Source of the DNA: Minisyncoccota bacterium
GTDB taxonomy: Bacteria; Patescibacteriota; Minisyncoccia; JAHIHE01; JAGLIN01
Direction: 5' to 3'
Length of the DNA: 64,000 nucleotides
Assembly (NCBI GenBank): GCA_041661265.1
Contig: JBAZUT010000001.1
Coordinates: 65,854 to 129,853, forward strand
Part shown: positions 4,168 to 39,149 of the stretch, one piece after another
Position numbering within the stretch: position 1 is the first letter of the stretch
Layout of the letters: every line of letters begins with the position of its first letter
Made by a program: the position numbers and the translations under genes
Notes under the pieces: model-generated
Told to the model about the DNA's origin: nothing
What the model saw: the letters and a program-made list of their open reading frames with translations, nothing else
Database searches by the model: none

Positions 4168-5391
4168 TCAATTCCCGAAATCAAGATATTTCCTACCTTT
4201 CAATTCTTCCGGCATATATTTCTGATCCTCCTTATAGTCAAAATTTGGAGAATATTTATATCCCTTTCCATAGTCCAGTTCTTTCATGAGCTTGGTAGGC
4301 GCATTTCTGATGTGCAGCGGCACGGGAAGATTGCCGTATCTTTTCACATCGGAAACGGCTTTTCCATAGGCCGTATAAAGCTCATTGTTTTTCTTGCTCC
4401 TGGCCATATAGACGACGGCCTGAGCAAGATTCACATTACATTCGGGCATTCCGATGAAATGACAAGCCTGATAGGCGGAAACCGCCTGGTCAAGCGCAAA
4501 TGAATTCGCGATCCCGATATCCTCGGAAGCGAATCTGATAAGTCGGCGGGCTATATAAAGAGGATCTTCCCCCGCTTCAAGCATCCTTGTGAGCCAGTAT
4601 AAAGCGGCGTCTGCGTCCCCTCCTCGCATGGATTTATGCAGTGCGGAAATTATATTATAATGTTCCTCTCCATCCTTGTCATAGGCAAGAGAACGCTGAA
4701 GAGCCTCTTCGATCATGTTCTTTTCTATTTTTTTGTCGATATCGCTCGCGAATTCAAGGGCATTAAGAGCGATCCTCGCATCCCCTCCCGACATGTCGGC
4801 AAGATATTCTATGTCCTCTGTCTTGATCTCTATCTTCAACTTTCCAAGTCCCGATTCCTTGTCCTTTAGAGCGCCTGCGATAATTTTTACAATGTCTTCT
4901 TTAGACAGCTTATCGAGCACAAAAACGCGGGAACGCGAAAGAAGAGCGTTATTCACTTCAAAGCTGGGATTCTCCGTCGTAGCGCCGATCAGGATTATTG
5001 TGCCATTTTCGACATGCGGGAGAAGAGCATCCTGCTGGGACTTGTTGAACCGGTGGATCTCATCGATGAATATGATCGTCTTTTTCCCCGTTTTTTTAAG
5101 CTCTTCCGCTTTTTTCACCTCAGCGCGGAGGTCCTTCACTCCGCTCGTTGTCGCGCTCAATTTTATGAACTCCCCTTTTGTAGCTTTTGCGATGATCGAA
5201 GCCAGGGTTGTTTTTCCGGAACCAGGAGGACCCCACAGGATCATTGAGGGCACATTGTCCGTTTCTATGGCTTTTTTCAGGATCTTGCCCTCGCCCAAAA
5301 GCTTTTCCTGGCCGATAAAATCAGCCAGCGTTTTCGGACGCATTCTGTCAGCCAGAGGGATTGTGTGGACTTTATTAACCATATTTTTCAT
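4168..5391 (-). CDS. rarA: Replication-associated recombination protein A (RarA/MgsA AAA+ ATPase)
   Basis: Walker A GPPGSGKTT, DEIHRF, characteristic RarA C-terminal region. Confidence 0.85.
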   Translation of the reverse strand: MKNMVNKVHTIPLADRMRPKTLADFIGQEKLLGEGKILKKAIETDNVPSMILWGPPGSGKTTLASIIAKATKGEFIKLSATTSGVKDLRAEVKKAEELKKTGKKTIIFIDEIHRFNKSQQDALLPHVENGTIILIGATTENPSFEVNNALLSRSRVFVLDKLSKEDIVKIIAGALKDKESGLGKLKIEIKTEDIEYLADMSGGDARIALNALEFASDIDKKIEKNMIEEALQRSLAYDKDGEEHYNIISALHKSMRGGDADAALYWLTRMLEAGEDPLYIARRLIRFASEDIGIANSFALDQAVSAYQACHFIGMPECNVNLAQAVVYMARSKKNNELYTAYGKAVSDVKRYGNLPVPLHIRNAPTKLMKELDYGKGYKYSPNFDYKEDQKYMPEELKGRKYLDFGN

Positions 5392-5403
5392 CTGATAAAA
5401 TTT

Positions 5404-5420
5404 AAGGAGCTAAGCTCCTT
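5404..5420. repeat. REP-like palindrome copy a (aaggagctaagctcctt), overlapping the RAYT stop codon
   Basis: Imperfect palindrome ggagct-a-agctcc. Confidence 0.65.
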
Positions 5421-6090
5421 GTTGCGCGCTTTCTATATAATACCTCTCTAGATCTTTTCTGCTTCCGGACTCCGAGATCACCATATCGACATAATTCTCA
5501 TACTCTTTTTCATCCGCGAAATTGGACATAATGGCCTCCCTGCTGCATAGAACTCCCGCCCTGCTTCCCAAATAATCAGGATAGCTGCACCATTTATAGT
5601 TTCTTGCATCTGATAATCTATGTATGCCCGCATTGCCGTTGATGTATGCCGAAAGCCACAATAGATACTCATTGGTATCTATGAGGATGGCCTTAAACGG
5701 TCCCTGAAAAAGCGATCCGGAACGATCATTTCTCTGGTTGAAATAATTTGTAAAACTGGTGCCGATTTTGTGCATAAACATCCTGATCCCATCGTCCCCG
5801 GTCTGCTTCAATATCAAATGATAATGATTCGGATTAAGACAATAGCAGACAATTTCCACCAGCTTTGATTCCAATAAGGAGCTTAGCTCCAAATTCCGGG
5901 AGCTAAGCTCCTTATTGGATGAGTTGTTCTTAATGATAGCTCGCTGTTCATAACTCGAAAAATTATTGAACATCTTCATACTTACCATAAATTTAGCATA
6001 GTCTTCGGCATCACAAAAAACATCCCGTTTATCTACGCCACGATTATATATATGATAATATTCCCCATTTGCAAAGCTTGTTTTTCGCAT
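5410..6090 (-). CDS. REP-associated tyrosine transposase (RAYT, Y1 HUH transposase, IS200-like) carrying an in-frame insertion encoded by two REP copies
   Basis: YHIYNRG, HuH motif NPNHYHLIL, SLFQGPFKAILIDTNEYLLWLSAYI; the stop codon TAG lies inside a REP palindrome. Confidence 0.7.
   Translation of the reverse strand: MRKTSFANGEYYHIYNRGVDKRDVFCDAEDYAKFMVSMKMFNNFSSYEQRAIIKNNSSNKELSSRNLELSSLLESKLVEIVCYCLNPNHYHLILKQTGDDGIRMFMHKIGTSFTNYFNQRNDRSGSLFQGPFKAILIDTNEYLLWLSAYINGNAGIHRLSDARNYKWCSYPDYLGSRAGVLCSREAIMSNFADEKEYENYVDMVISESGSRKDLERYYIESAQQGA
5871..5918. repeat. Composite REP doublet b+c (ccaataaggagcttagctcc / aaattccg / ggagctaagctccttattgg), in frame inside the RAYT CDS
   Basis: Direct read; translated as NKELSSRNLELSSLL within the ORF. 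Confidence 0.65.
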
Positions 6091-6177
6091 ACAATGGCCC
6101 TAATTGCTCTAATTTGTCTGCATTTACATTATATCCCACCCGAAAAACAAAAACAAACTGTAAAATGCACAGTTTGA

Positions 6178-6206
6178 TCCCAATAAGGAGCTAAGCTCCT
6201 TATTGG
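6178..6206. repeat. REP copy d, full 27-bp palindrome ccaataaggagctaagctccttattgg, about 90 bp upstream of the RAYT start
   Basis: Direct read; shares the upstream flank agtttgatcc with copy b. Confidence 0.7.
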
Positions 6207-6251
6207 ACGTTGTGTTTCCGATGTCTGTTTATTCCGAAGCGAATGATCCGC

Positions 6252-6761
6252 TTATTCCCTCGGATAGACCAGAAGCATGCCTACTATAGCCAATGCCGTG
6301 AAAAGAATAAGATGACTGAAGTTTCCGTTGATAAGGAAAAGCATCAGCCCAAAGATCGCCATTGATTCCGCAAATGCGATCCGCAAGAGACCGTAATTGA
6401 TCGGACCACCAGATGAATTAAAGATTGCATTTTTTGACTCTGCTTTCGGATTCAATTTGAATATCACAACAAAATTAATTATGGAGATGATCAGAAATGC
6501 CGAGAATACTAATGAATATGTCCCGCCGTCCATGCCTATAAATCCCATAAATCTATCCTGAGACTGGACTATGGTCTCGATATCCGAACCCGCAAGCTTT
6601 GGCGCAAAAGTCTTTATCCGAGATTCACTCGGCATTTGCGCTATCAATATTGCAACGATATTGTAAACAAATATCGCAACAAAAAAAGCAAACCAGAGGA
6701 CTTTATTGTTTATCGGCTTAGGCGCATTCGCTTTTGGCGTCTGGCCATTTTGCTCTTCCAT
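6252..6761 (-). CDS. Hypothetical membrane protein (about 4 TM segments)
   Basis: ORF track, hydrophobic segments. Confidence 0.4.
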   Translation of the reverse strand: MEEQNGQTPKANAPKPINNKVLWFAFFVAIFVYNIVAILIAQMPSESRIKTFAPKLAGSDIETIVQSQDRFMGFIGMDGGTYSLVFSAFLIISIINFVVIFKLNPKAESKNAIFNSSGGPINYGLLRIAFAESMAIFGLMLFLINGNFSHLILFTALAIVGMLLVYPRE

Positions 6762-25124: not shown

Positions 25125-25421
25125 CTATTTTCCTTCAACGATCGCCATAATGTCTTCGTCCGAAACGACAAGATATTCTTTGCCGTCGATCTTGATCTCC
25201 GTCGGGCTGTATTTTGAAAAAAGCACAGTGTCACCGACTTTGACATCCATCGGGATCCGCTTTCCGGCATCGTCAATTTTTCCCGGACCGACAGCGAGAA
25301 CTTTCCCCTGTTCCGGCTTGTCCTTGTCAACCGTATCGGGAATTATGATCCCGCTTTTTGTTTTTTCTTCTTTGGAAACAGCTTCCAGGATGATCTTGTT
25401 TCCGAGAGGTTTCAGCTTCAT
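25125..25421 (-). CDS. groES: Co-chaperonin GroES (start at the internal Met MKLKPLG of ORF 25125..25460)
   Basis: Classic GroES sequence. Confidence 0.9.
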   Translation of the reverse strand: MKLKPLGNKIILEAVSKEEKTKSGIIIPDTVDKDKPEQGKVLAVGPGKIDDAGKRIPMDVKVGDTVLFSKYSPTEIKIDGKEYLVVSDEDIMAIVEGK

Positions 25422-25523
25422 ATGACTTTCCTTTCCGCACCTGCTTTTCGGCAGACGCATTAACTTGTTAATTGGGCTCTGATCAGGCTTTATTAAATTT
25501 TACCTCGAATCTTCCGAACGATT

Positions 25524-25550
25524 TTGGCACTCTCTCTGTTTGAGTGCTAA
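25524..25550 (-). promoter_or_regulatory. CIRCE element (TTGGCACTC-N9-GAGTGCTAA), HrcA operator upstream of groES
   Basis: Matches the TTAGCACTC-N9-GAGTGCTAA consensus at 17/18 positions; about 100 nt upstream of groES. Confidence 0.75.
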
Positions 25551-25554
25551 TACC

Positions 25555-25582
25555 ATTCTATTCGTTTTTCAGCGGGTGTCAA
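25555..25582 (-). promoter_or_regulatory. Sigma70-like promoter (TTGACA-16/17-TAGAAT) immediately upstream of CIRCE
   Basis: Minus-strand read: cTTGACAcccgctgaaaaacgaaTAGAATggta. Confidence 0.5.
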
Positions 25583-25642
25583 GAGGACAGCCCATTAGCT
25601 TTTTAGGTTGTAGCTTTTTAGATGTTATCGGAATTAAACCAT

Positions 25643-25672
25643 TAAAAAAAGATGCGAATAATGCATCCTAAG
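25643..25672 (-). terminator. Rho-independent terminator (gatgcattattcgcatc hairpin + T7 on the minus strand) adjacent to the displaced 3'-end repeat
   Basis: Direct read. Confidence 0.5.
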
Positions 25673-25682
25673 AAGCTATTGA

Positions 25683-25722
25683 TTCAATCCCGAATCTTTT
25701 TGTTCTGCAAATTCCGAAAGCT
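25683..25722. repeat. attB-like imperfect direct repeat: about 85% identical to the last 40 bp (including the stop) of the nucleotidyltransferase gene at 29266..29305
   Basis: Manual alignment ttca(a/g)tcccgaatcttt(t/c)tg(tt/cc)ctgcaaattc..aagc. Confidence 0.55.
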
Positions 25723-25752
25723 TTTTTCGTTCCCGATTTCAATTCGGGAATT

Positions 25753-25800
25753 TTTCTAAATTCACAAAAATATTTGCGAACTTGGAAAATTGGAAGGAGT
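25753..25800 (-). promoter_or_regulatory. Copy 1 of a roughly 45-bp motif (minus-sense TTTTCCAAGnTT-N17-20-GTAAAyTTAGAAAA)
   Basis: Three copies found by eye, all oriented with minus-strand transcription units. Confidence 0.35.
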
Positions 25801-25845
25801 GCTTGGTCGTGCGGACTTTACACTCCTGTCTTTTTTACCATGTTT

Positions 25846-26394
25846 CTATTTAAACATAGTATTCATTTGGGCGATCATATCAACCGCCCCCATTTTTTCT
25901 TCTTTGATTTTCGTCTCTTTTCCTTTTCCTTCCTTCTTATACGAAATTGTTTGTCCATTAACATCTCGTTCATCCACGAACTGAGATGCTATGTTCTGTG
26001 CCCAGCCGAACGGCGCCGAGACAAGAACCCAAGTTTCTCCGCCAGAGCCTCCGCCAGTGGAAACTTCGGAAAGTTTTCTGACTTCCGATCCAAACTCCAC
26101 ATGAAAGCTTGGCCAGCGCTTGGCTCCGCAGCCCGGACTATACTGCTCGACAAGCACCAATTCCATTTGAGGATTTTCCTCGCAGGGGATCAATACGACT
26201 CCCTCATTGGTGATAACAATGTAGATTTTATCCAAATTGCCATCCGATGCAGGAGTGCTCGCAATAAGTCCCGTATCATGACGTGTCATTCCCGACTGTG
26301 GACTGAATGGTACTTGTCCGTCAGCGACACCAATACCCTTGCTGACACTGTTTCCGCGAAGTGTCAAGGCGATATGGGGAGTTTTCATAACCAT
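25846..26394 (-). CDS. Hypothetical protein (island gene 3 of 3; no recognisable domain)
   Basis: ORF track; 10-nt overlap with the upstream gene; local GC about 50% versus about 40% elsewhere. Confidence 0.45.
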   Translation of the reverse strand: MVMKTPHIALTLRGNSVSKGIGVADGQVPFSPQSGMTRHDTGLIASTPASDGNLDKIYIVITNEGVVLIPCEENPQMELVLVEQYSPGCGAKRWPSFHVEFGSEVRKLSEVSTGGGSGGETWVLVSAPFGWAQNIASQFVDERDVNGQTISYKKEGKGKETKIKEEKMGAVDMIAQMNTMFK

Positions 26395-27110
26395 TCCCCG
26401 CCGCCATTTTCAACTATCACCAGTGCCAGTCGAGCCTTGCGTCTTTCCGGCGTTTCAACAACCCATTCTTTTCCGGTCCACATATACCACGTGGATGAGT
26501 ACTTAGAATTAAGCCGGAAAATTGCGCCCGGTGAAAGAATCGCAAGAACCTCTTCGCCATGGTTCGTCCGGCCAGCCTGCCCGAAAGCAATCGTGCCGGA
26601 AATAATCGTTTCCACTCCTTGGGCATCATGGATACCATATGACCGACAACGATCATACGACCCCACGGCGTTGATTACCGCCAGGCAACGATCCTCGTCG
26701 TTCCAGTCTCCACGAACAAGGACGATTCCCGTGTCTGTCTTCTTGGCGCGAACCTCGGAACCATTACCAATAATGGGAATAATTCCTTCGTTTCGTCCGC
26801 GACCACTTTCGCCAATAACAATGCTATCACGAGATCTTATAATCCCTGCTTTCGGGTGATATGTTTCCCACACAGTCCCCTTTTTCTCGTAGGGCGCCCA
26901 TAGCTCCCCGCACTCCTTACATGGTCCGGGATTATTCTCTCCAGGATCGATGAAAGTTATATCGCTTTTTCCTTTATTAGGACAAGGGACATCCATTTCC
27001 ATCATTACCGGATTATCTCCCGGCGAAGATATTGTGTACAATTTCATTTTATTCACCTCTTCTCTTTGTGCTCGAAAGACTAATTTTTCTATGAGCTTTA
27101 AACTCCGCAT
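26385..27110 (-). CDS. Hypothetical protein (island gene 2 of 3; possible Cys4 metal site CP..x20..CKEC)
   Basis: ORF track; ATGA start/stop overlap with the upstream gene. Confidence 0.45.
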   Translation of the reverse strand: MRSLKLIEKLVFRAQREEVNKMKLYTISSPGDNPVMMEMDVPCPNKGKSDITFIDPGENNPGPCKECGELWAPYEKKGTVWETYHPKAGIIRSRDSIVIGESGRGRNEGIIPIIGNGSEVRAKKTDTGIVLVRGDWNDEDRCLAVINAVGSYDRCRSYGIHDAQGVETIISGTIAFGQAGRTNHGEEVLAILSPGAIFRLNSKYSSTWYMWTGKEWVVETPERRKARLALVIVENGGGEWL

Positions 27111-27700
27111 TACCCGCGGCTAGGGATTTCTTCTGATGTCTCTCGCCAGACTTCAAACTCCTCAGTTGGCATCGTTTTGTAGCCATCCCAAGAAAAAATC
27201 TCGACAAGACCGGTTCCGCATCGCCGACCCGTTTCTGCAAACACATATCCTTTCGGATCTGTGAGCCGAACAACCAAATGTCCTGTGGGACAACAATGTA
27301 TATTGCCGTCCTTCTTAGACAAAATTTCGGCACCGATGGCTTCAACCCTGCTATAATTTCCACGGAATCCGCCACGCAGAGTTATGAGCATTAGCTTCTC
27401 GTCCTGTTTTTCCGAGCACGGAACAATAAGTAGTGTTCCTTTTTGTGTTTCGATCAACTTTGACGGCTGATCATCAACACTCACATTCGGACAGGAATAT
27501 CCGTCTGCCGATGGCTCTTTCCCCTTAAACTTTGGAACATAGCCGCTTGCGACTGGCTGAAATGCACTATAACGTGCTCCAGCTCCACGAAACGCCGGAA
27601 AAGGTTCAACTGACCAATTCCATGGCATAGGACGGAATGAGTTCGTCTTTTCTGAAGAATACAATATTTTTATCATTACTTTCTGCCTCCTAAATTTCAA
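27110..27700 (-). CDS. Hypothetical protein (island gene 1 of 3)
   Basis: ORF track; translationally coupled operon. Confidence 0.45.
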   Translation of the reverse strand: MKFRRQKVMIKILYSSEKTNSFRPMPWNWSVEPFPAFRGAGARYSAFQPVASGYVPKFKGKEPSADGYSCPNVSVDDQPSKLIETQKGTLLIVPCSEKQDEKLMLITLRGGFRGNYSRVEAIGAEILSKKDGNIHCCPTGHLVVRLTDPKGYVFAETGRRCGTGLVEIFSWDGYKTMPTEEFEVWRETSEEIPSRG

Positions 27701-27834
27701 TGTTCATCCTGAAACATTCTCAGGAACCCTTTTTAAAATTTTCATTTTAACAAAGAGTAACCTGTTTACCCGCCCCCAGCGGGATTGCAACCGTTTGTTT
27801 CAGGATAAACAAATTACTCTGTACTAAATAATTT

Positions 27835-27890
27835 TCTAAATTTACCTTTTTATGAAAGATAAGCTTGGAAAAAAATTGAAAAGGGGAAAA
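27835..27890 (-). promoter_or_regulatory. Copy 2 of the same motif, upstream of the three-gene island operon
   Basis: as above. Confidence 0.35.
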
Positions 27891-27896
27891 AGTTAC

Positions 27897-28412
27897 TTAT
27901 TCATCAATTGACTTAACTATTAATACAAAGCCAACGATAAATAATGCCAGTGTGAACCAGAATGCAAGCGCCCAGGCAAAGTTGTTTGGGAATCTGGAGA
28001 TTCCCGGAGGCACTGTCACAGCAGAACCCTGTTCGCCCTTGTTCGTTAAGGTTTCCCTTAACTTCATGAGCACGTTGCTCTTGTCGAGCTGTGAAGCATT
28101 TTCAGGAACTTTTTTGAGTTCCCAAAGAGATGCGTTCATGTTCTCATACCAGAACCCTACATCTTCATCCGGGGTTCTCAAAAAACTTATTATCGTGGTA
28201 TACCCATGCGTATACCCATTCACCCTCATGTTCTCAATCACGGTTTCCATTTCCTTCGTTGCGAGGTCAATGGTATTCGAATCAGCGGCTCTCTGCATAT
28301 GGCCGCCTATCTCCTGCTCAAACGTGATCTCGGCCTTATACAATAAAGTTCCAGCACATATTACAAACGTTAGGCATAATAATATGCCAAAAACAAATTT
28401 TAGTCCATTCAT
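27897..28412 (-). CDS. Hypothetical membrane protein (N- and C-terminal TM helices) preceded by an unusually long 5' leader
   Basis: ORF track. Confidence 0.4.
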   Translation of the reverse strand: MNGLKFVFGILLCLTFVICAGTLLYKAEITFEQEIGGHMQRAADSNTIDLATKEMETVIENMRVNGYTHGYTTIISFLRTPDEDVGFWYENMNASLWELKKVPENASQLDKSNVLMKLRETLTNKGEQGSAVTVPPGISRFPNNFAWALAFWFTLALFIVGFVLIVKSIDE

Positions 28413-28741
28413 ATCCTCACCTCTCCCTGTCTTGTTTTATTTTGCCTTACCGCGTATAGTCAAAAGACAAAAAACAGAGAATTTTATTTATGCGGTTAAA
28501 GCGTTTGCTGGATTGCTGGTCAACAAACACTTTGCCCGCATAAATATTATCGAGAACGTGAAGATTACCGATGAATCAGGAACATGATTTGATATTATTT
28601 TTCCCCTTTTTCAATGTGCATCGCCGCGACATAGCTTTACGCGACATCGGGCATGCTTCTCTTCGTATTTCTACGATTTGAAGACTTCTTGACCCGTGAA
28701 ACCTTTATCTCACCGGGTTAGGCCTCGAAATTTTTTCGAAG

Positions 28742-28790
28742 CTTTTCTAAGTTTACCTTAGCAAAAGATAAACTTGGAAAATCGGGGAAC
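28742..28790 (-). promoter_or_regulatory. Copy 3 of the same motif, about 330 nt upstream of gene 27897..28412
   Basis: as above. Confidence 0.35.
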
Positions 28791-29257
28791 GGATCGCTTC
28801 GTCATTCTTTCTCAGGGCAATGCCCTTCTTAATCAAAAAAGCGATCGAAAGAGAGATCCTTCCAATCGCTTTTTTAATCCATGCGATTAGTATGACATTA
28901 TTAAGTATATAGAAATATGTTAATGTTTGCTTTATTGATTATTAATCTATTACTAAGCAAGCATTCGGTTATATTCCTTTATACAACTCATTAATGACTC
29001 TCTCCTTTCATTAATCTGTATATTTAATGTTCATTTACTGTTATCTATTTTCTTATCTTGAAATTAAAGTATATCACATTTTTTGATATTTGTCAAGAGA
29101 AAGCTTAACAACAAATTAGGAAAATAGTCCTATCTCAATATACCCAAATCCACTGCCAATAAACGAGTTCCGGAACAATAAAAAAGGCTTTTAAAAAGTC
29201 TAAGGCAAACATTGACATCGGTTGTCCTAAAAAGCCAATAAGCTACAAACTGAAAAG

Positions 29258-30265
29258 CTATTTATTCAGTCCCGAATCTTTCTGCCCTGCAAATTCAGCA
29301 AGCCCCATCTTTTCCATGCGGGAGTTGAATTCCGGGATCACGAATCTTTCATGAGAATCCGGATGAAATTCGAGCTGATCATCGCCTATCGTTATCCGGC
29401 CTCCGGATTTTTTATACAACGGATCGCTCTTTATTCTTCTGCTTTGAAATTCGGAGAGTTTTTTCTCCAGCACATCCCCGATCACGTTCGACAGCATAAA
29501 ACCGGATACTGAAGAAATAAAAGAAAGCACAGCGCTTCTTTTTATGCTCCTCGAGCTCCCAAGCTCTGAACCCCTGCAATTTTCGACATAATTTCCCATC
29601 CATTCGTTTTCTATCTGAAACTCTTGAAAAAGCCTGAGGTCTTTCGGATGTTTGTATAAATTGACCAGATGTATATAGCTCTCGGCGTTATACAAGCTTT
29701 CAAAAGGTATCTTGAGAGATCTGTCGGTAATATAATGGTTAAGACAGATCATATCTTTCGTCACCTTGCCATGCCTTTTTGCAAAAAGAAGCGAAGTCAG
29801 AATGGTTATGAACGTCCTCACCGTCCATATCCTTCCGGACTTTGCCACAACGATAAGGTCTATGTCCGAGTCCCGCCTGCTGTTCCCGAGCGCAAGAGAC
29901 CCGCTTATGAAGATGCCTTTCAAAAATGGCGTGACTTGCATCAGCCAAAAGATCTTTCTGGCCTTCTTCCATTTTTGGTCCGCTATTTTTTTCCGCTCCA
30001 GCCTCCTGGCGACCATCTCATCCCGGCCTCTCTGGAAATAAAAACCGTATTTCACACCGATCCTGCTTCTCAACATCTCGCCCTCTTCCAGACACTCCAA
30101 AACATCCCCTGACGCTCCTTCGCTCTTGCTGTTTTCGTTCCCGCCTCTTCTAATCAGATATGAAAAAATCTCATTCGAAGTCAGAGGATAATCAAATATG
30201 TCATAGTATGCGATCGTGGCAAGGATCTGCCTTTGAAGCTCTTGACTTTTTTTTGATTCTAGCAT
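29258..30265 (-). CDS. Nucleotidyltransferase-domain protein (Pol-beta superfamily; GSLALGNSRRDSDIDLIVV), start taken at internal Met MLESKK
   Basis: GS-x9-DxD NTase signature; ORF track 29258..30364. Confidence 0.55.
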   Translation of the reverse strand: MLESKKSQELQRQILATIAYYDIFDYPLTSNEIFSYLIRRGGNENSKSEGASGDVLECLEEGEMLRSRIGVKYGFYFQRGRDEMVARRLERKKIADQKWKKARKIFWLMQVTPFLKGIFISGSLALGNSRRDSDIDLIVVAKSGRIWTVRTFITILTSLLFAKRHGKVTKDMICLNHYITDRSLKIPFESLYNAESYIHLVNLYKHPKDLRLFQEFQIENEWMGNYVENCRGSELGSSRSIKRSAVLSFISSVSGFMLSNVIGDVLEKKLSEFQSRRIKSDPLYKKSGGRITIGDDQLEFHPDSHERFVIPEFNSRMEKMGLAEFAGQKDSGLNK

Positions 30266-30353: not shown

Positions 30354-30845
30354 TTGATTGTCAATTTTTGGCAATCATTTTACCCTGTTTCTAAAGGCAA
30401 ATGGACAAAGGAACCGTTCCAATGGAGGAATATTATGGATGATATGGATGATGTAGGTGAATCAATAATTTTTACTGCATGTGTAGGGATATTAAGCTTT
30501 ATCGTAAGCCTAAGAATCTTTCACAAGGAAGGAGTACTTTCTTATGGAGCTATTGACGGTGCTTTAATTGTAGCGCTTCTAATAGGAATTTTCGTGGCCC
30601 TTTTTAAAAATTACGCGGTCTTCATAGGAATTAAGGAATTGAAAATAAATCCAAAGAAAAAAGTATTTACTATTGGAACGCTAGTAATCACGATGATTGC
30701 AGCGACTGCCGCTGTGTTCATTGCCCCGAAAGGCTGGTGGCCAATCTATATAGCGTACTTCTTCTTGTTAGCTATTGTTTTTTGCCTAATAAGAGGAGCA
30801 TGCCTTATGAAAGAAGAGAGATCCAATTCCCTCCCCGAAACTTAA
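30354..30845 (+). CDS. Hypothetical membrane protein (4 TM); true start probably an internal Met
   Basis: ORF track. Confidence 0.35.
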   Translation: MIVNFWQSFYPVSKGKWTKEPFQWRNIMDDMDDVGESIIFTACVGILSFIVSLRIFHKEGVLSYGAIDGALIVALLIGIFVALFKNYAVFIGIKELKINPKKKVFTIGTLVITMIAATAAVFIAPKGWWPIYIAYFFLLAIVFCLIRGACLMKEERSNSLPET

Positions 30846-31008
30846 GAAATCTTAACTTTTCTTATTTTCTGGAGAGGATTTTTTTATTGCCCGAAAATAG
30901 AGATTTTTTCGCAGCTTCATACCTTTTCAATGACAAAATTAGCATCTAATCGCCAAGCTCTCGGGAAATTAACCCACAAAAACAATACTTCATCACTTCT
31001 TCCGGATA

Positions 31009-31551
31009 TTATCCTGCATAGTCTTTTATTGCTTTCGGCGACTTATCTATTTTTTCCTTCTCCAGGTTCAAACCTTCGACCTCTATGATATTTTCACTAT
31101 CGGCTCCTTTTATTTTTACATATATTTTATTTTCACCGGGCCTATAAAGAACGTCATACCGGCCACCGCCGGTTTCAACTTTTACATCTTCCGCATCAAC
31201 AATGATGTCTCCTTCATTTTTCAGCATTTCTATTATATCCTGCACCATATTGCTTACTTCATTTCCTATCTTTTTCCCCACATAGCTTCCTTTTGGCAGA
31301 TCTTTCAAGCTTTCCCTCTGCCGCACTGTCAGCCCGGAATTTTCAACATGAAACAGAACGGAAACATCGCCTTGCCGCATTAAAAGCGCAGAGCACAAAG
31401 CGCATCCTGTTGTCGCGATGGGAGTTTCATCCCTGGATACAGCCGGTCTATTTCCCTGAAACGTTGTAATACATAATTCCTCCGGATCTTCAAACTCAGG
31501 AATTATCAATTCTTTTTTCTCTATTCCAAAATTTTGATTCTCTTTAAACAT
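31009..31551 (-). CDS. Hypothetical protein
   Basis: ORF track. Confidence 0.4.
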   Translation of the reverse strand: MFKENQNFGIEKKELIIPEFEDPEELCITTFQGNRPAVSRDETPIATTGCALCSALLMRQGDVSVLFHVENSGLTVRQRESLKDLPKGSYVGKKIGNEVSNMVQDIIEMLKNEGDIIVDAEDVKVETGGGRYDVLYRPGENKIYVKIKGADSENIIEVEGLNLEKEKIDKSPKAIKDYAG

Positions 31552-31667
31552 ATTTTTATTGAATTACCTATCACCCCAACTCGCATGCAGACAATGTCCA
31601 GTAGCAAGGAATCTGCACTTCAGGCTCTTAACTTTTTCGTAAATTTGGCATACAGTCTTTGGTTAGC

Positions 31668-31701
31668 TTTCTTAATGTAATAATACCATAAGATAGCTAA
31701 T
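31668..31701 (-). promoter_or_regulatory. Second copy of the palindromic extended -10 element
   Basis: ttagctttcttaatgtaataataccataagatagct. Confidence 0.4.
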
Positions 31702-31830
31702 AATAAAGTTCTTTTTAAATAAAATAGGAAGAGATCCCCGGAGATGGATAAATTGGGCGATAGCTTTTAGCGTCCAGTTTATCCATCTCCAGAATGATGG
31801 TGAGTATATAAAAAAACCAGAGGTATATAT

Positions 31831-32226
31831 ATGACTAAGGATATAATAGAGAGAGTAGAAGAATTGATTGAAAAAGAAATGAAAAAAAGAAAAACTATGG
31901 AAGAATCCAGATCAAAGATCCGCATCCTCTTTGAAAAACTGCCCGACAACGAAAACATAGTCCTGAAGGCCAAATCCGCAAAAAGAGTGATCTTGCTGAT
32001 AAAAAGGGCTGATGGGAAGCTTGAATTGATCGACACTACCATGTGGCTGGACCAAGACATTCCCGCACCGACATTCCAAAGGGACATCGAAGAAATCATG
32101 AAACATCTTGGAGAGAACATTGTCAGCATCAATGAATTTATGAGCCAGGATTCAGGTACGCTCGGCCTAAGCCTTCATTGGCCTGTTTTCGGTTCTGTGG
32201 ATAATTTCACAGAACTTCTGAAATGA
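31831..32226 (+). CDS. Hypothetical protein
   Basis: ORF track; RBS-like aggtatatatATG. Confidence 0.4.
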   Translation: MTKDIIERVEELIEKEMKKRKTMEESRSKIRILFEKLPDNENIVLKAKSAKRVILLIKRADGKLELIDTTMWLDQDIPAPTFQRDIEEIMKHLGENIVSINEFMSQDSGTLGLSLHWPVFGSVDNFTELLK

Positions 32227-35176: not shown

Positions 35177-35503
35177 AGATTGGATTTTTAGGATGAATTC
35201 ATAAGGCGCTTTTTTGCCTTAAATAAGCCCTTATTTTTCTTATTAAAATCGAATGAATATAACATCTAGAAGTCTATCACACTTTTGGAAAAAATCAAGG
35301 GTCTTTTGGGGGATGTTGAAAATCAAATGGATGCGATCAAATAAGCCATTCTCAAATAAAAAAAGTCGGCATCACTCAAACCGCTTTTTTCTTTCTATTT
35401 CCCAAGCGCTTCAATGCCCAAAAATATTATGACACTCTATAATAAATAAGTATGCAAATTTAAGCTATTTAACAATATTTACAAAATATACCTAAAATAT
35501 AAA

Positions 35504-35857
35504 TTATCTATTTATAATCCTCCTGTGAGCTTTTTTGGAAGAAAACAACAAAAGTAAATCCTCATATACTCGACTTGCCGAAACTTCATTATTTTTCGAG
35601 TAATTACATACAAATATACCAGCCGAAACATAATGATCTTCGGGCCAAGTATGTACAGCTACGTGAGATTCACTGATTGCAGTAATCATTGTAAAGTTAA
35701 TTTTATCAAAAAAATGATACAGGCTCCCTACTTCTGTCAGTCCACTATCCTTAATCATAGAAGAAAATAATTGTTTTATTTTTTTTGAAAGCCTTGATAT
35801 CTTATCGAAATCGCATTCATAAAAATCAGCTAAAATATGTATTCCTCTATTATTCAT
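35504..35857 (-). CDS. speH: S-adenosylmethionine decarboxylase proenzyme (SpeH/SpeD class 1)
   Basis: ESHVAVHTWPE motif; start at internal Met of ORF 35504..35908. Confidence 0.65.
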   Translation of the reverse strand: MNNRGIHILADFYECDFDKISRLSKKIKQLFSSMIKDSGLTEVGSLYHFFDKINFTMITAISESHVAVHTWPEDHYVSAGIFVCNYSKNNEVSASRVYEDLLLLFSSKKAHRRIINR

Positions 35858-35965
35858 AAAATTCAGAAAATATAAATTAACACATAGCAGAGCAAACAAA
35901 ATAATCAAAAATAAATTGGGGCTGATTGTATAATTGTTTGTATACAGATGCAGCCCAACGATCTC

Positions 35966-36487
35966 TCAGAAAACACCGCTTTCTTCTTTTAAATATTTAA
36001 GAAGTTCCTTTTTGTGGTTGAGAAGTATGTACAATTGAGGAGGATAGAAATCCTTGAACTTTTTCCTTATCTCCCAGAGCGACAATGGTTTTTTGAAAAG
36101 GTGCACAACTTCAACAGGATACGCTGAAGCCGTTTTGGAGTTATTCAACCATTCTCTCATCATAGATTCGGAGCCAGGATCTTCACTTTCCTTAATTGCA
36201 ATAACTTCTTCTATGCCTATAATTGGCGAGCCAAGCCTAATAACAGCTCCAATTTCCGCACTCGGAAACCCTATGTTTTCCTTACCCTTTCCAGTTGTTG
36301 CGTAAACAAACGCAGTAGCAGACCCGTTAAAGAACGGGCCTCGCCTGTACTCGTATTTTTTTGTTTTAGCGATGGCAAGGTCATAATAGTATTTAGGGGA
36401 TATACTAACCAAAATATAATCTTCCGGCCACTGGCTGCTTTCATCTGTACTTGCGTCAAATAACGTAGTTTGCCTTATATTTTTCAT
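35966..36487 (-). CDS. ASCH/PUA-like domain protein
   Basis: KTKKYEYRRG motif (GxKxxExR-type); tentative. Confidence 0.4.
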   Translation of the reverse strand: MKNIRQTTLFDASTDESSQWPEDYILVSISPKYYYDLAIAKTKKYEYRRGPFFNGSATAFVYATTGKGKENIGFPSAEIGAVIRLGSPIIGIEEVIAIKESEDPGSESMMREWLNNSKTASAYPVEVVHLFKKPLSLWEIRKKFKDFYPPQLYILLNHKKELLKYLKEESGVF

Positions 36488-36509
36488 ATTTCCTCCTGTG
36501 AAATAATAA

Positions 36510-37824
36510 TTACCCCATAATCTTTGCCGCTTTCAACTTATTCTCCAGCAACAAGGAAAAGTAGAGAATTGAGTAAGAATCGCGATCCATATACGCCGGA
36601 TCTTTGGACCATTCGCGTATATGATTCCACAATCTTTCCAATCCTTCTTTTCCATAGACTAACATAAAATCATCAAAATCAGCAAACCCTCGGGGTATAT
36701 GCTTATAAAGATCTCCGACATAAAGCGATTTTGACAATTTTGCTCCAAGCAAATCCGTTACCACGGGAGTATATATTCTCGCCATCTGCCTCTATTAACT
36801 TGAAATACCTTTCCATTCCATAAACGCTAACGCCCATTTTCTTTTTGATCAAATATTCTGAATTAACGAAATTTAATTCGTCTTTTAGGAAACTGGCAAA
36901 GGCTTTGGATATGCCATCCTTGCTGATAAATATTTTTCTTTGAGTATAATGTTTACGCAATTCTTTGACGGTTTTCCGGCATTACTTCTTATATTGTTAA
37001 ATTTATCATAAAGCTCGTCCATTGTCGCTGGAGATATTTTTTCAACTTTCTGCAAAAAACTCCACTGATCTTTGAATGGTTCGAAGCTGTTGACGGGATC
37101 AAGAAAAACAGTATTCCCCGACTTTCTAGCGTTTCCCTGGAACGGCAAAGCGATAAGATTTCCGAAACCTGCGCCTCCAAGATAATCTTGATTAGGGAAA
37201 AGCCTGTCGAAACTTTCCTCTTTTTCGAATTGACCGATAATTCCGGCTTCTTTCAAAATATTAAGAGCAACATTTCTGCTTTTATGCGCAGGATATCTGT
37301 CAGAAAAAAACATCCAGACATGGCCGCCATTTCCCGATTTTGACCTTTCCAGATGTGCGGATAGCCCGTTATCATTGCATTTTTTCATGAATTCTTTCGA
37401 GTTTTTCAGCCAATTCTTCCCATCGAAATCCGCAGCAATAAATAGAGATGAATTGTCGTCTAACAAAGGATATATTCCATAGATCTCATTTCCCCTCAAA
37501 TGCTGTTCGATGTGATAGTCATTGAATTCCGCGTATTTTTTGTGCTTGCAATCCTTGCATTTTCCCTTTTGAAGCTTGATACAGACGCCCGCCTTCCATT
37601 CATTCACGCAAACTGGTGCATAGCCTTTTTTTGGTCTTATCTTTATTCTCCCAATAAACAGCAAAAACATCTTTTCTTCCGATAAAAATGTTTTTGTAGA
37701 TATTGATCTTTTCTTGCGGCGTCAGGTTTTCTGTCATAATTTCTCTATTATTTCCTCTTTTTATTCTCCCCATCATATTGATTCGCATATCCAAGAAGCG
37801 AAATGACATTTTGCCACATGGCAT
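36510..37824 (-). pseudogene. Primase-polymerase (archaeo-eukaryotic primase, PrimPol) gene broken into four overlapping reading frames by about 3 frameshifts
   Basis: Fragments 37824-37600, 37670-36885, 36960-36703, 36785-36510 on one strand; PrimPol motifs FIGRKDVFAVYWE, IAADFDG (DxD), SKSGNGGHVWMFF, CKDCKHKKY zinc finger. Confidence 0.5.
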
Positions 37825-37826
37825 AA
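37799..37826 (-). promoter_or_regulatory. 29-bp repeat cgaaatgacattttgccacatggcataaa with inverted repeat TTGCCA-ca-TGGCAT, about 60 nt upstream of the PrimPol start; identical copy upstream of recQ
   Basis: Exact duplicate at about 41068..41096. Confidence 0.5.
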
Positions 37827-37837
37827 ATTTTTATTTC

Positions 37838-38854
37838 TTATTTTTTCGATTTTTTTCTCAAAAGTTTTTTGACTTCTTTGTCAAAATCGGAAATATAATT
37901 CTTATCCTGTTCTATTCTATATTTTTCATATTCCTTAAGCGCTAATTCTTCCGCAACCTCATGGCTGACTTTTCCGGCGTTAGTTAAAATTTCATACTCG
38001 CTGAATTTCAAAAAAGCATTCAGCTTAACAATCCAATCTTTCATTGTCATCGCCCTGCTGCGCGCCGCTTGCATTTCGGCATAATCCAAATACATATTTC
38101 CAATTCGATTTAAATGCTCCATTTCTTTTTTATCCAAATAATTTTTAGCGATTATTGTATCGCTCGGCATAATCTTTCCCTGCGGAGAACGCCTCCAAGA
38201 AGTTAATCCCATCTTATCTTTCTTGCTGCTCGCGCGATTTGCAATGATTTCCGCCGCGGTCTTGCCTGTTATGGCAAAATGAAGTTTATTTTGCACTGTC
38301 GCAAAAAATTCCTTGCTTTCATGAGCTTTTGGCGAATAATCAATCGCCGTAGCATAAATATCAGTGATTTTTTGATAAATCATCCGTTCACTGGTGCGAA
38401 TGTCTTTGATTTCCTCGTATAAATCATCAAAATATCGGGTACTAAAACGAGAGCCGTATTTCATCCTGTTGTTATCTAAAGCATAACCCTTGTGAATATA
38501 ATTTTTCAAAATTTCAGTTGCCCATTGGCGAAATTGCGTGCCTCGCTCGGAATTCACGCGATAACCGACGGCAATAATGGCTTCCAAAGAATACATTTTG
38601 GCTTTTCGCTGTATATCCCTGCCTCCTTCTCTTTGAACTTGTAAGAAATCCTTACAAGTTGCCGATGCGTCCAATTCGCCATCATCATAAGCGTTTTTCA
38701 AGTGCTGTGTGATATTTTGCGGAGTAGTATCAAAAAGTTCGGAAATACGCCTTTGGGAAAGCCAAATATTTTCTTCAGAATATAGAACTTCAATATTCAC
38801 CGAACCGTCCGGCGATTGATAAAAAGCGATTTGATTATCAGGTATTTTTTTCAT
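37838..38854 (-). CDS. RhuM family (virulence protein RhuM / DinD-like) protein
   Basis: AVGYRVNSERGTQFRQWATEILKNYIHKGY motif and N-terminal BroN-like region. Confidence 0.65.
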   Translation of the reverse strand: MKKIPDNQIAFYQSPDGSVNIEVLYSEENIWLSQRRISELFDTTPQNITQHLKNAYDDGELDASATCKDFLQVQREGGRDIQRKAKMYSLEAIIAVGYRVNSERGTQFRQWATEILKNYIHKGYALDNNRMKYGSRFSTRYFDDLYEEIKDIRTSERMIYQKITDIYATAIDYSPKAHESKEFFATVQNKLHFAITGKTAAEIIANRASSKKDKMGLTSWRRSPQGKIMPSDTIIAKNYLDKKEMEHLNRIGNMYLDYAEMQAARSRAMTMKDWIVKLNAFLKFSEYEILTNAGKVSHEVAEELALKEYEKYRIEQDKNYISDFDKEVKKLLRKKSKK

Positions 38855-38885
38855 GTTTTTTTAATAGTTTTATTTTACATTTTTT

Positions 38886-39149
38886 TCATTTCCCCGCATC
38901 AGTCAAATAAAATTTTCCATCAGAAGCCCGCATTTTCAGTTGGTCACATTTTGTGACGACCTCACTTCCCTCTTCTTTTAAACGATTTTTCAATGTTGTC
39001 CGGTAACTTTGAGCTTTTTTATGGTCAGTCTGACTAATTAAAACAGCTATAATATCCACTACCGAAAAATACCACACCTCTTTTTGCTCATCATAAATAC
39101 GGCGAACATTAAAATTTTCAAAAATCACCAACGAACTTTGATTTTTCAT
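38886..39149 (-). CDS. BroN / DinD-N-like domain protein (truncated RhuM/DinD-type N-terminal module)
   Basis: FENFNVRRIYDEQKEVWYFSVVDIIAVL...ASDGKFYL. Confidence 0.45.
   Translation of the reverse strand: MKNQSSLVIFENFNVRRIYDEQKEVWYFSVVDIIAVLISQTDHKKAQSYRTTLKNRLKEEGSEVVTKCDQLKMRASDGKFYLTDAGK

Follow-up and report, generated by a model that had tools for sequence, protein, structure and literature searches.

Probable old insertion with a mosaic cargo at the 3' end of a nucleotidyltransferase gene in a Candidatus Paceibacterota genome

The subject of this analysis is a small island of accessory genes in a stretch of 64,000 nucleotides (nt), hereafter the window, which covers positions 65,854 to 129,853 of contig JBAZUT010000001.1 (assembly GCA_041661265.1). 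The host is represented by a metagenome-assembled genome (MAG) of Candidatus Paceibacterota, within the candidate phyla radiation (CPR)/Patescibacteria (locus tags WC788_00560-00595 in the NCBI MAG). Four genes, which encode a protein with two transmembrane (TM) segments and three further proteins that we call A, B, and C, lie here between an intact nucleotidyltransferase (NTase) gene and a decayed second copy of that gene's 3' end, just ahead of groES. Taken as a whole, the locus is probably explained by an old, now apparently immobile insertion of about 3.5 kb with a mosaic cargo (window 25752-29227). The firmest part of this explanation is the entry of accessory DNA into the 3' end of the NTase gene, which we regard as very probable. 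Coordinates refer to the window, and features lie on its minus strand unless stated otherwise.

A displaced gene end and the unoccupied site in relatives

The target of the proposed insertion, the NTase gene (29258..30265), is intact. It encodes 335 aa from a conserved ATG, although the longest open reading frame (ORF) reaches 30364; it matches the Pfam NTP_transf_2 model at 23.2 bits (cut-off, 21), and it carries a GS-x10-DID motif, GSLALGNSRRDSDID, that fits the Pol-beta-type pattern G[SG]-x(9-13)-DxD. Its C-terminus still aligns to the very end with the orthologs of two relatives, represented by contigs L014 and L015. The functional 3' end of the gene forms one copy of a repeat (copy R, 29228..29340), comprising about 81 nt of coding sequence and about 30 nt downstream of it, in which the terminator hairpin has not been kept; this copy would either have arrived with the insertion or have arisen through it. 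The other copy (copy L, 25649..25751) is a frameshifted pseudo-3' end that closes with LSEFAEQKDSGLNQ and a stop codon and is followed by an intact terminator, seen as a terminator-like hairpin on the minus strand at 25669-25649. Read on the minus strand, copy L gives NRERKKLSEFAEQKDSGLNQ and a stop, against MEKMGLAEFAGQKDSGLNK and a stop at the C-terminus of the NTase. Because an in-frame stop codon and indels lie upstream of this conserved end, copy L is a dead fragment. Without gaps, the copies match over 54 nt at 83% identity (25668-25721 versus 29250-29303); with gaps, 79 of 110 positions are identical (72%; 25649-25751 versus about 29228-29340). The duplication covers only the last ~81 nt (~27 codons) of the NTase coding sequence, and the longest exact runs shared by the two copies are 12 and 10 nt. 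A preliminary description of the window had already paired a 40-nt core of about 85% identity at 25683-25722 with the NTase 3' end and had noted a terminator beside it; both observations hold, the core falling within the 54-nt match.

The repeat was also assessed statistically. The entire window, with the NTase 3' end masked out, was searched for matches to that end, and the comparison was repeated on 200 dinucleotide-preserving shuffles. Copy L was the top match at 62.5 bits, whereas the shuffled controls averaged 24.5 bits (standard deviation, 1.8) and never exceeded 31.1. Together with the in-frame conservation at the protein level, this sets the similarity well beyond chance for AT-rich DNA. 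The arrangement of the insert is likewise identical in four independent assemblies that span both junctions. The ENA (ERZ27249449:k141_269461), JGI, and two Logan assemblies are 100% identical across both of them, the exception being a single spacer indel in the JGI contig L061, and the insert is present in contigs from all four samples. The one observation that might favor an assembly artifact is that Logan contigs of two different samples begin or stop at the same point in the AT-rich spacer of the island (28986-29014). We give chance similarity or misassembly a negligible probability. At that same point, two Logan contigs from one sample overlap by 29 nt, and an assembly-graph branch is indicated (L003, L058, and L060), reflecting either a repeat elsewhere or population heterogeneity at this position.

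Further evidence for an insertion comes from the relatives, which were sought through the NTase across one genome per GTDB species. In the closest of them, L014 (NTase 61%, GroEL 79%, UvrA 68%, LemA 78%, and M48 peptidase 79% identical), uvrA and the NTase gene are followed, after a gap of 170 bp, by groES-groEL, LemA, a pilin-like gene, and the M48 peptidase gene, which is the order of the window minus 3.5 kb. In L015, a member of Moraniibacteriota with an NTase 52% identical to that of the window, groES starts about 150 bp past the NTase. The NTase-groES gap of both genomes (~150-170 bp) contains a terminator, a promoter, and a CIRCE operator. The window presents the same layout ahead of groES, with the remnant and its terminator followed by a native block (25125..25582) made up of a sigma-70-like promoter (25582-25555), a CIRCE-like inverted repeat, TTGGCACTC-N9-GAGTGCTAA (25524-25550), and groES itself (25421-25125). 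Copy L aligns with the NTase ends and terminators of both relatives, and the flank of its terminator matches the corresponding flank in L014. An insertion of about 3.5 kb follows from this uvrA-NTase-groES order with only ~150-170 bp between the last two genes, and the sequence comparison makes an ancestral NTase-groES adjacency with a later insertion a well-supported reading. The earlier proposal of a displaced native 3' end and a replacement 3' end thus proves right, given that the remnant occupies the position at which the NTase ends in L014 and L015. The same two genomes supply the relatives without the insertion, with groES next to the NTase, that had been suggested as a check.

Two further histories could leave a similar locus. 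According to the first, the TM-A-B-C block is ancestral at this site and was lost by deletion from the L014 and L015 lineages, with no insertion having occurred. Genes B and C are indeed found within 10 kb of uvrA in three other contigs (L036, L037, and L050) and near recA in L007, L036, and L037; the third-codon-position GC content (GC3) of the island genes is typical, and the NTase-groES slot is filled by other genes in L017, L018, and L020. However, such a history leaves the presence of a frameshifted NTase 3' end with a terminator, precisely at the NTase-end position of L014 and L015, without an explanation, and A, the B-C pair, and the TM gene differ from each other in distribution, so that we consider it very improbable. 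The second history invokes a tandem duplication of the NTase gene, the downstream copy of which was overwritten or deleted by incoming genes except for its 3' tip. Paralogous NTases are common, and the end state, a direct repeat of the 3' end, would be the same; yet no further NTase-derived sequence is detectable in 25600-29257 at the DNA or protein level, neither L014 nor L015 has two NTase copies, and more events are needed than in one Campbell-type integration. This course of events appears quite unlikely.

Several points nonetheless weigh against the insertion. The empty site was seen in two genomes only, and no close strain lacking the insert was recovered, as exact look-ups with GroES and the NTase gave only insert-bearing contigs. 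Among the contigs retrieved, there was no circular or excised form. The longest exact match within the repeat is 12 nt, so that no clear crossover core remains, although decay after the event could have erased one. The island genes show no sign of foreign origin in GC content or codon usage, and no recombinase gene or remnant was found in or beside the insert when the island ORFs were compared with Pfam, PHROGs, PADLOC, and NCBIfam and the spacer was searched in fragments. Finally, more distant CPR genomes keep the order uvrA-NTase-X-groES-groEL with differing X: a multi-pass membrane protein of 529-541 aa overlapping the NTase stop in L017 and L018 and two membrane-protein ORFs in L020. As these genomes hold other genes there, the NTase-groES slot is variable in general.

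Some features of this neighborhood deserve mention in their own right. The membrane-protein genes of L017 (5905-7530) and L018 (4103-5692), which belong to a Kerfeldbacteria MAG and another Patescibacteria MAG, encode products that by eye resemble ArnT/PMT-type glycosyltransferases (PLTNWDEGIYA motif). The NTase stop overlaps the start of these genes, and there is a hint here that the NTase may work with envelope glycosylation. The CIRCE element of L014 is perfect (TTAGCACTC-N9-GAGTGCTAA) and that of L015 degenerate; by their sequence, these elements would imply HrcA-type heat-shock control in these CPR genomes. In L014, groES and groEL form one 682-aa ORF (4317-6365; Cpn10 plus Cpn60), which could be a genuine fusion or could result from an error of sequencing or assembly at the groES stop. 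A second variable slot lies between uvrA and the NTase gene of the window (30435-32226), where three small genes of 136 aa (plus strand), 180 aa (minus strand), and 131 aa (plus strand) are each the sole member of their 90% identity cluster. The 131-aa protein has weak matches to PADLOC PDC-S05 (best E = 2e-4). L014 lacks all three, its uvrA stop being 22 nt from the NTase start.

Probable mode of insertion, composition, and known parallels

The geometry of the locus is quite likely that of a Campbell-type integration. A circular DNA bearing ~105 nt of the NTase 3' end and flank would have integrated by a single crossover, so that the incoming copy (~27 codons) now completes the reading frame of the NTase. 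The native end, together with its terminator, would thereby have been pushed 3.5 kb away, where the coding part would have decayed while the terminator survived. Transcription of A-B-C would now stop at that terminator, immediately before the promoter and CIRCE operator of groES. The crossover may have been carried out by a site-specific integrase since lost, to which we give somewhat less than an even chance, or by RecA. The event is taken to be old in view of the divergence of the repeat (72-83% identity), the frameshifted state of the remnant, and a composition that bears no sign of a recent foreign origin; the host-like composition could reflect either drift toward that of the host or a donor of similar composition.

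The preliminary description had presented the locus as an island of higher GC content, and in this respect it has to be corrected. The GC content of A, B, and C (0.46-0.48) is that of groEL (0.49), uvrA (0.48), and LemA (0.49), and their GC3 (0.41-0.46) is at or below the mean of the window genes (0.481; standard deviation, 0.074). Only GC at the second codon position is raised (0.42-0.46 versus ~0.34), and the elevated GC of these genes is thus attributable to an amino acid composition rich in glycine, arginine, proline, and alanine. By composition, a better candidate for foreign DNA than the TM-A-B-C island is the stretch 35200-38900, the lowest-GC part of the window (30-39% GC; gene GC3, 0.24-0.42). 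Besides small genes without annotation, it has an AdoMet_dc-like gene and another for which an AEP-TOTE primase-like match to Pfam was precomputed.

A noncoding spacer next to the NTase gene, estimated earlier at about 850 bp, does exist (28413..29257; 845 bp, 35% GC, no ORF of >38 aa). The idea that it represents a decayed integrase is not borne out, in that the ten longest of its 23 stop-free six-frame fragments of at least 25 aa match no recombinase family at E of 10 or below and the spacer contains no Rfam family. There is no tRNA within the island, and blastn of the island against phage and plasmid collections gave no match. The spacer is structured in other ways. Its proximal 413 nt upstream of the TM gene (28413-28825) fold into five or six long hairpins and are unusually structured (z of about -6.5 to -6.9, as against +1.5 to -4.9 in 14 other intergenic regions of the window), with no Rfam match. 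The distal, AT-rich half has a sigma-70-like promoter (29096-29068; an 11/12 match with an extended TG) and, ~190 nt past it, a strong hairpin of 22 bp (28878-28832) set between runs of A and T; judging from these signals, 28826-29096 could encode a small RNA of ~230 nt or be a leftover promoter-terminator pair. An imperfect palindrome of 41 nt, TTTTCCAAGYTTATCTTT ... AAAGGTAAAYTTAGAAAA, is present twice, once ~155 nt before gene A (27832..27872) and once upstream of the TM gene (28743..28781), with 5 half-site matches versus 0.39 expected. It was found in the contigs of this organism only and could, from its sequence, be a shared operator or a small repeat element. Two other candidates were discarded as chance: a 17-nt inverted repeat on either side of the TM gene, since the same repeat list contains many similar pairs, and the sole island Rfam match at E of 1 or below, a ZMP/ZTP riboswitch inside gene C (25993-26071; E = 0.12; 27.2 bits, with the gathering score at 39).

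The proposed insertion has a close precedent in the Escherichia coli prophage e14 (and phage 21), which occupies the 3' end of icd, leaving an intact target gene that extends into the element. Beyond e14 lies icdC, a displaced C-terminal pseudo-end; it and the 3' end of the intact gene form a direct repeat whose copies have diverged (PMC13626634). In the window, the NTase gene would be the counterpart of icd and the remnant at 25649-25751 that of icdC; as expected for an element of this type, the window has flanking repeats derived from the target, a frame kept by the copy on the element side, a nonfunctional displaced end, and an unoccupied site in relatives. Unlike e14, which at 15 kb has its own integrase and still excises, the window insert measures 3.5 kb, encodes no recombinase, phage, or replication gene, has repeats that are only 72-83% identical, and shows no sign of excision. 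It also resembles the integrase-less "grounded" islets that decayed integrative elements leave behind, in bringing a few accessory genes bounded by att-like repeats into the 3' end of a conserved gene and in being absent from relatives. As a rule, a compositional signature or an integrase pseudogene survives in islets of this kind. The window insert differs in showing neither, and in its CPR host; with GC3 of 0.41-0.46 against 0.481 +/- 0.074, it would not be recognized as a horizontally acquired island by a compositional definition. A limited literature search found no paper focused on integrated elements in CPR (Paceibacterota) bacteria.

Gene A, the TM protein, and the roaming B-C pair

The cargo had been described as a coupled three-gene operon of overlapping genes, with the implication of a common origin. 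This holds for B and C only. Gene C (25846..26394) overlaps the stop of gene B, either as ATGA at 26388 or, should the ATG at 26394 be its start, by 10 nt, and the B/C overlap is the only one conserved across loci. The 1-nt overlap claimed between A and B, however, depends on an upstream extension of B by 21 codons that is not conserved. The aligned full-length homologs begin at MKL/MKI-type N-termini, which puts the B start codon at 27047, with GAGGTG as the Shine-Dalgarno sequence ahead of it; of the other sequences in this alignment, P0066 is truncated and a few homologs have longer predicted N-termini. With B thus delimited (26385..27047; 220 aa), the gap between A and B is 62 nt.

Wherever the contig extends far enough for adjacency to be judged, B and C are adjacent and overlapping (>25 contigs, about a dozen neighborhoods). 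At 90% identity, the B family falls into 70 clusters and the C family into 53. Across these loci, the two proteins are 42-80% identical to those of the window, against 52-61% for the NTase orthologs, and both are absent from IMG/VR. About ten of the contexts are formed by housekeeping genes. The neighborhoods include NUDIX and cytidylyltransferase genes (L004); TrmB, UDG, RNase J, LexA, and RecA (L007); L19 and a GT4 glycosyltransferase (L032); PPDK and an SDR (L036 and L037); RNase HII (L038); and GAPDH and enolase (L066). Defense-type genes accompany the pair in L010-13 and L044, where it stands at the end of a ribosomal-protein operon that is followed, on the upstream side, by genes for Csx3, SAVED, and radical-SAM proteins, while AAA_14/DUF4143 and HicA lie downstream. 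Since about a dozen different chromosomal neighborhoods are involved, B-C is best described as a roaming two-gene cassette. On the opposite strand, a 361-aa ORF runs antisense to B and C in the window (25774-26859, plus strand), and similar ORFs are present in L040 (328 aa) and L050 (291 aa); we take them to be a by-product of the conserved sense sequence, which can mislead gene callers. A PPDK gene in L066 (12311-14666) has an intein with a LAGLIDADG domain according to precomputed Pfam matches.

Gene A (27110..27676; 188 aa from the ATG at 27676, behind AGGAGG) has a history of its own. Its family comprises 58 clusters with members up to 85% identical, and it is found without B-C in seven other contexts, never accompanying the pair outside this organism; B-C, in turn, is without A at every other locus, so that a three-gene operon of common origin is not supported. 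In L028, A lies between two large serine recombinases, with genes for a Rep protein and an HTH_17 protein. In L062 and L063, it belongs to extended series of small genes on one strand, together with Hen1/Pnkp and ArdC (anti-restriction type), and in L064 to a similar series with a Dam methylase. In the IMG/VR contig L030, it occurs with an anti-restriction gene, a replication initiator, a DnaC-like loader, and a transposase. As its other occurrences thus lie on phage-, plasmid-, or integrated-element-like DNA, A can be associated with mobile elements. The TM protein (27897..28412; 171 aa) has hydrophobic segments at its N- and C-termini, in agreement with the two TM segments assigned to it earlier, and is specific to the lineage, its 90% identity cluster consisting of 4 members that are all unnamed hypothetical proteins. 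The cargo is therefore mosaic, combining the lineage-specific two-TM protein with gene A and the B-C pair.

Domain fusions and possible roles of the cargo

That A, B, and C contain no recognizable domain, as first reported, remains the case after profile and fold searches. Neither they nor the TM protein have a match in Pfam, PHROGs, PADLOC, or NCBIfam; Pfam likewise had no match for any of the 34 members of the C alignment, and a sequence search of the PDB with the A, B, and C profiles gave nothing below E = 0.06. Protein B is modeled by AlphaFold2 with its family alignment (pLDDT 79, pTM 0.74) as a beta-sandwich with a C-terminal helix, in which an insertion of 46 residues is disordered. This insertion, specific to the B protein of this organism and with a pLDDT of <50, houses the cysteines of the CP...CKEC site, so that the putative metal site is not a feature of the family. 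Protein C (180-182 aa) has a conserved core of ~150 aa and a short helical tail in place of the "T" tail domain described below; its model, obtained in the same way, has a pLDDT of 84 and a pTM of 0.77. No fold match was found for either model in the PDB or, for C, in BFVD. A mutual homology of A, B, and C was rejected, the hhalign comparisons being insignificant (probabilities of 0.3-4%); a shared VLVPCxxE...LxL motif, like the parallel fusions to C, gives no more than a suggestion of a relationship.

More can be gleaned from domain fusions. An exhaustive hidden Markov model (HMM) search with the C profile yielded 102 representatives at 50% identity, which were then searched with the A, B, and C profiles by hmmsearch. 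Six proteins combine B and C in a single chain (P0241, P0256, P0230, P0211, P0231, and P0187), and two combine an A-like domain with C (P0199 and P0220), the A-like and B domains both lying N-terminal to C. Many C proteins end in a further domain, here T, with the signature DHIV..CGR..HL..SGDPDFF.GADPN and the terminus ALRKAGL, and one protein joins B to this tail (P0275). The C core also appears near the C-terminus of P0239, a 1545-aa HrpA/HrpB-like DEAH helicase, and the tail domain ends P0273, an HrpA-like helicase, the cold-shock-domain proteins P0263 and P0267, and proteins of 350-750 aa without Pfam annotation; both P0239 and P0273 match HrpA/HrpB models. Across the three families, there are invariant Gly/Arg-rich loops (GxxGRGR, GAKRWP, and GGSGG).

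On these grounds, we lean, with moderate confidence, toward a physical complex of B and C; a cytoplasmic heteromer of the two, with A as an alternative partner of C, would be a weak extension of this view. The most likely role of the cargo may be that of an accessory, possibly conflict-related module that binds or acts on RNA or nucleotides. This suggestion derives from the beta-rich nature of A, B, and C with their invariant Gly/Arg loops, and from the fusion of the C core and tail to HrpA-like DEAH helicases and of the tail to cold-shock-domain proteins, and it is a weak one; we hold an RNA- or conflict-related role to be possible but doubtful. The likeness to HrpA/HrpB DEAH-box helicases is a link by domain fusion, as P0239 bears the C core and P0273 the tail domain, whereas the island encodes no helicase and the C protein of the window is without the tail. 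Other points also count against this reading of the cargo: the fusions come from unannotated metagenomic proteins, some of the B+C "fusions" could be frameshift artifacts, the genes being overlapping, defense-type neighbors occur in 2 of the ~12 B-C contexts, and PADLOC has no match for A, B, or C.

A more specific proposal would make B-C a toxin-antitoxin-like or anti-phage pair, with A as the phage-type counterpart that engages the same C. Like the two-gene toxin-antitoxin and small defense cassettes, B and C are small, overlap at start and stop by a conserved 4-10 nt, and have a patchy distribution over many unrelated positions, two of these being beside genes such as Csx3, SAVED, radical-SAM, AAA_14/DUF4143, and HicA (L010 and L044). 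The occurrence of A on phage- or plasmid-like DNA near anti-restriction genes and the fusion of both A-like and B domains to the N-terminus of C would also fit. Unlike the known families of this kind, however, the pair has no sequence match (PADLOC, Pfam, or NCBIfam) and no fold match, its conservation is unusually high when set against that of the NTase orthologs, most of its neighbors are housekeeping genes, and it is absent from IMG/VR. We therefore regard this proposal as rather unlikely.

At the far end of speculation, A, B, C, and the tail domain T might together make up a modular system, not described before, of CPR bacteria and their mobile elements. In it, C would be the effector or nucleic-acid-binding core working with HrpA-like RNA helicases, B its chromosomal partner, and the element-borne A a protein that hijacks or neutralizes C. 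Such a system is a long shot; if true, A-B-C-T would constitute a new defense/counter-defense or RNA-surveillance module, and the window would preserve a fossil insertion that unites the host-type and element-type partners.

The island itself is ordinary, a textbook displaced gene end like that left by e14 at icd, albeit in an under-studied phylum. It also shows that the uvrA-NTase-groESL block, though widely conserved otherwise, has a variable slot between the NTase gene and groES. The main yield lies in the cargo, which brings to light two or three strongly conserved, unannotated protein families. The "Rosetta-stone" fusions of B and A to C, and those that connect C with HrpA-like helicases and cold-shock-domain proteins, provide testable leads into the functional dark matter of these ultra-small bacteria.

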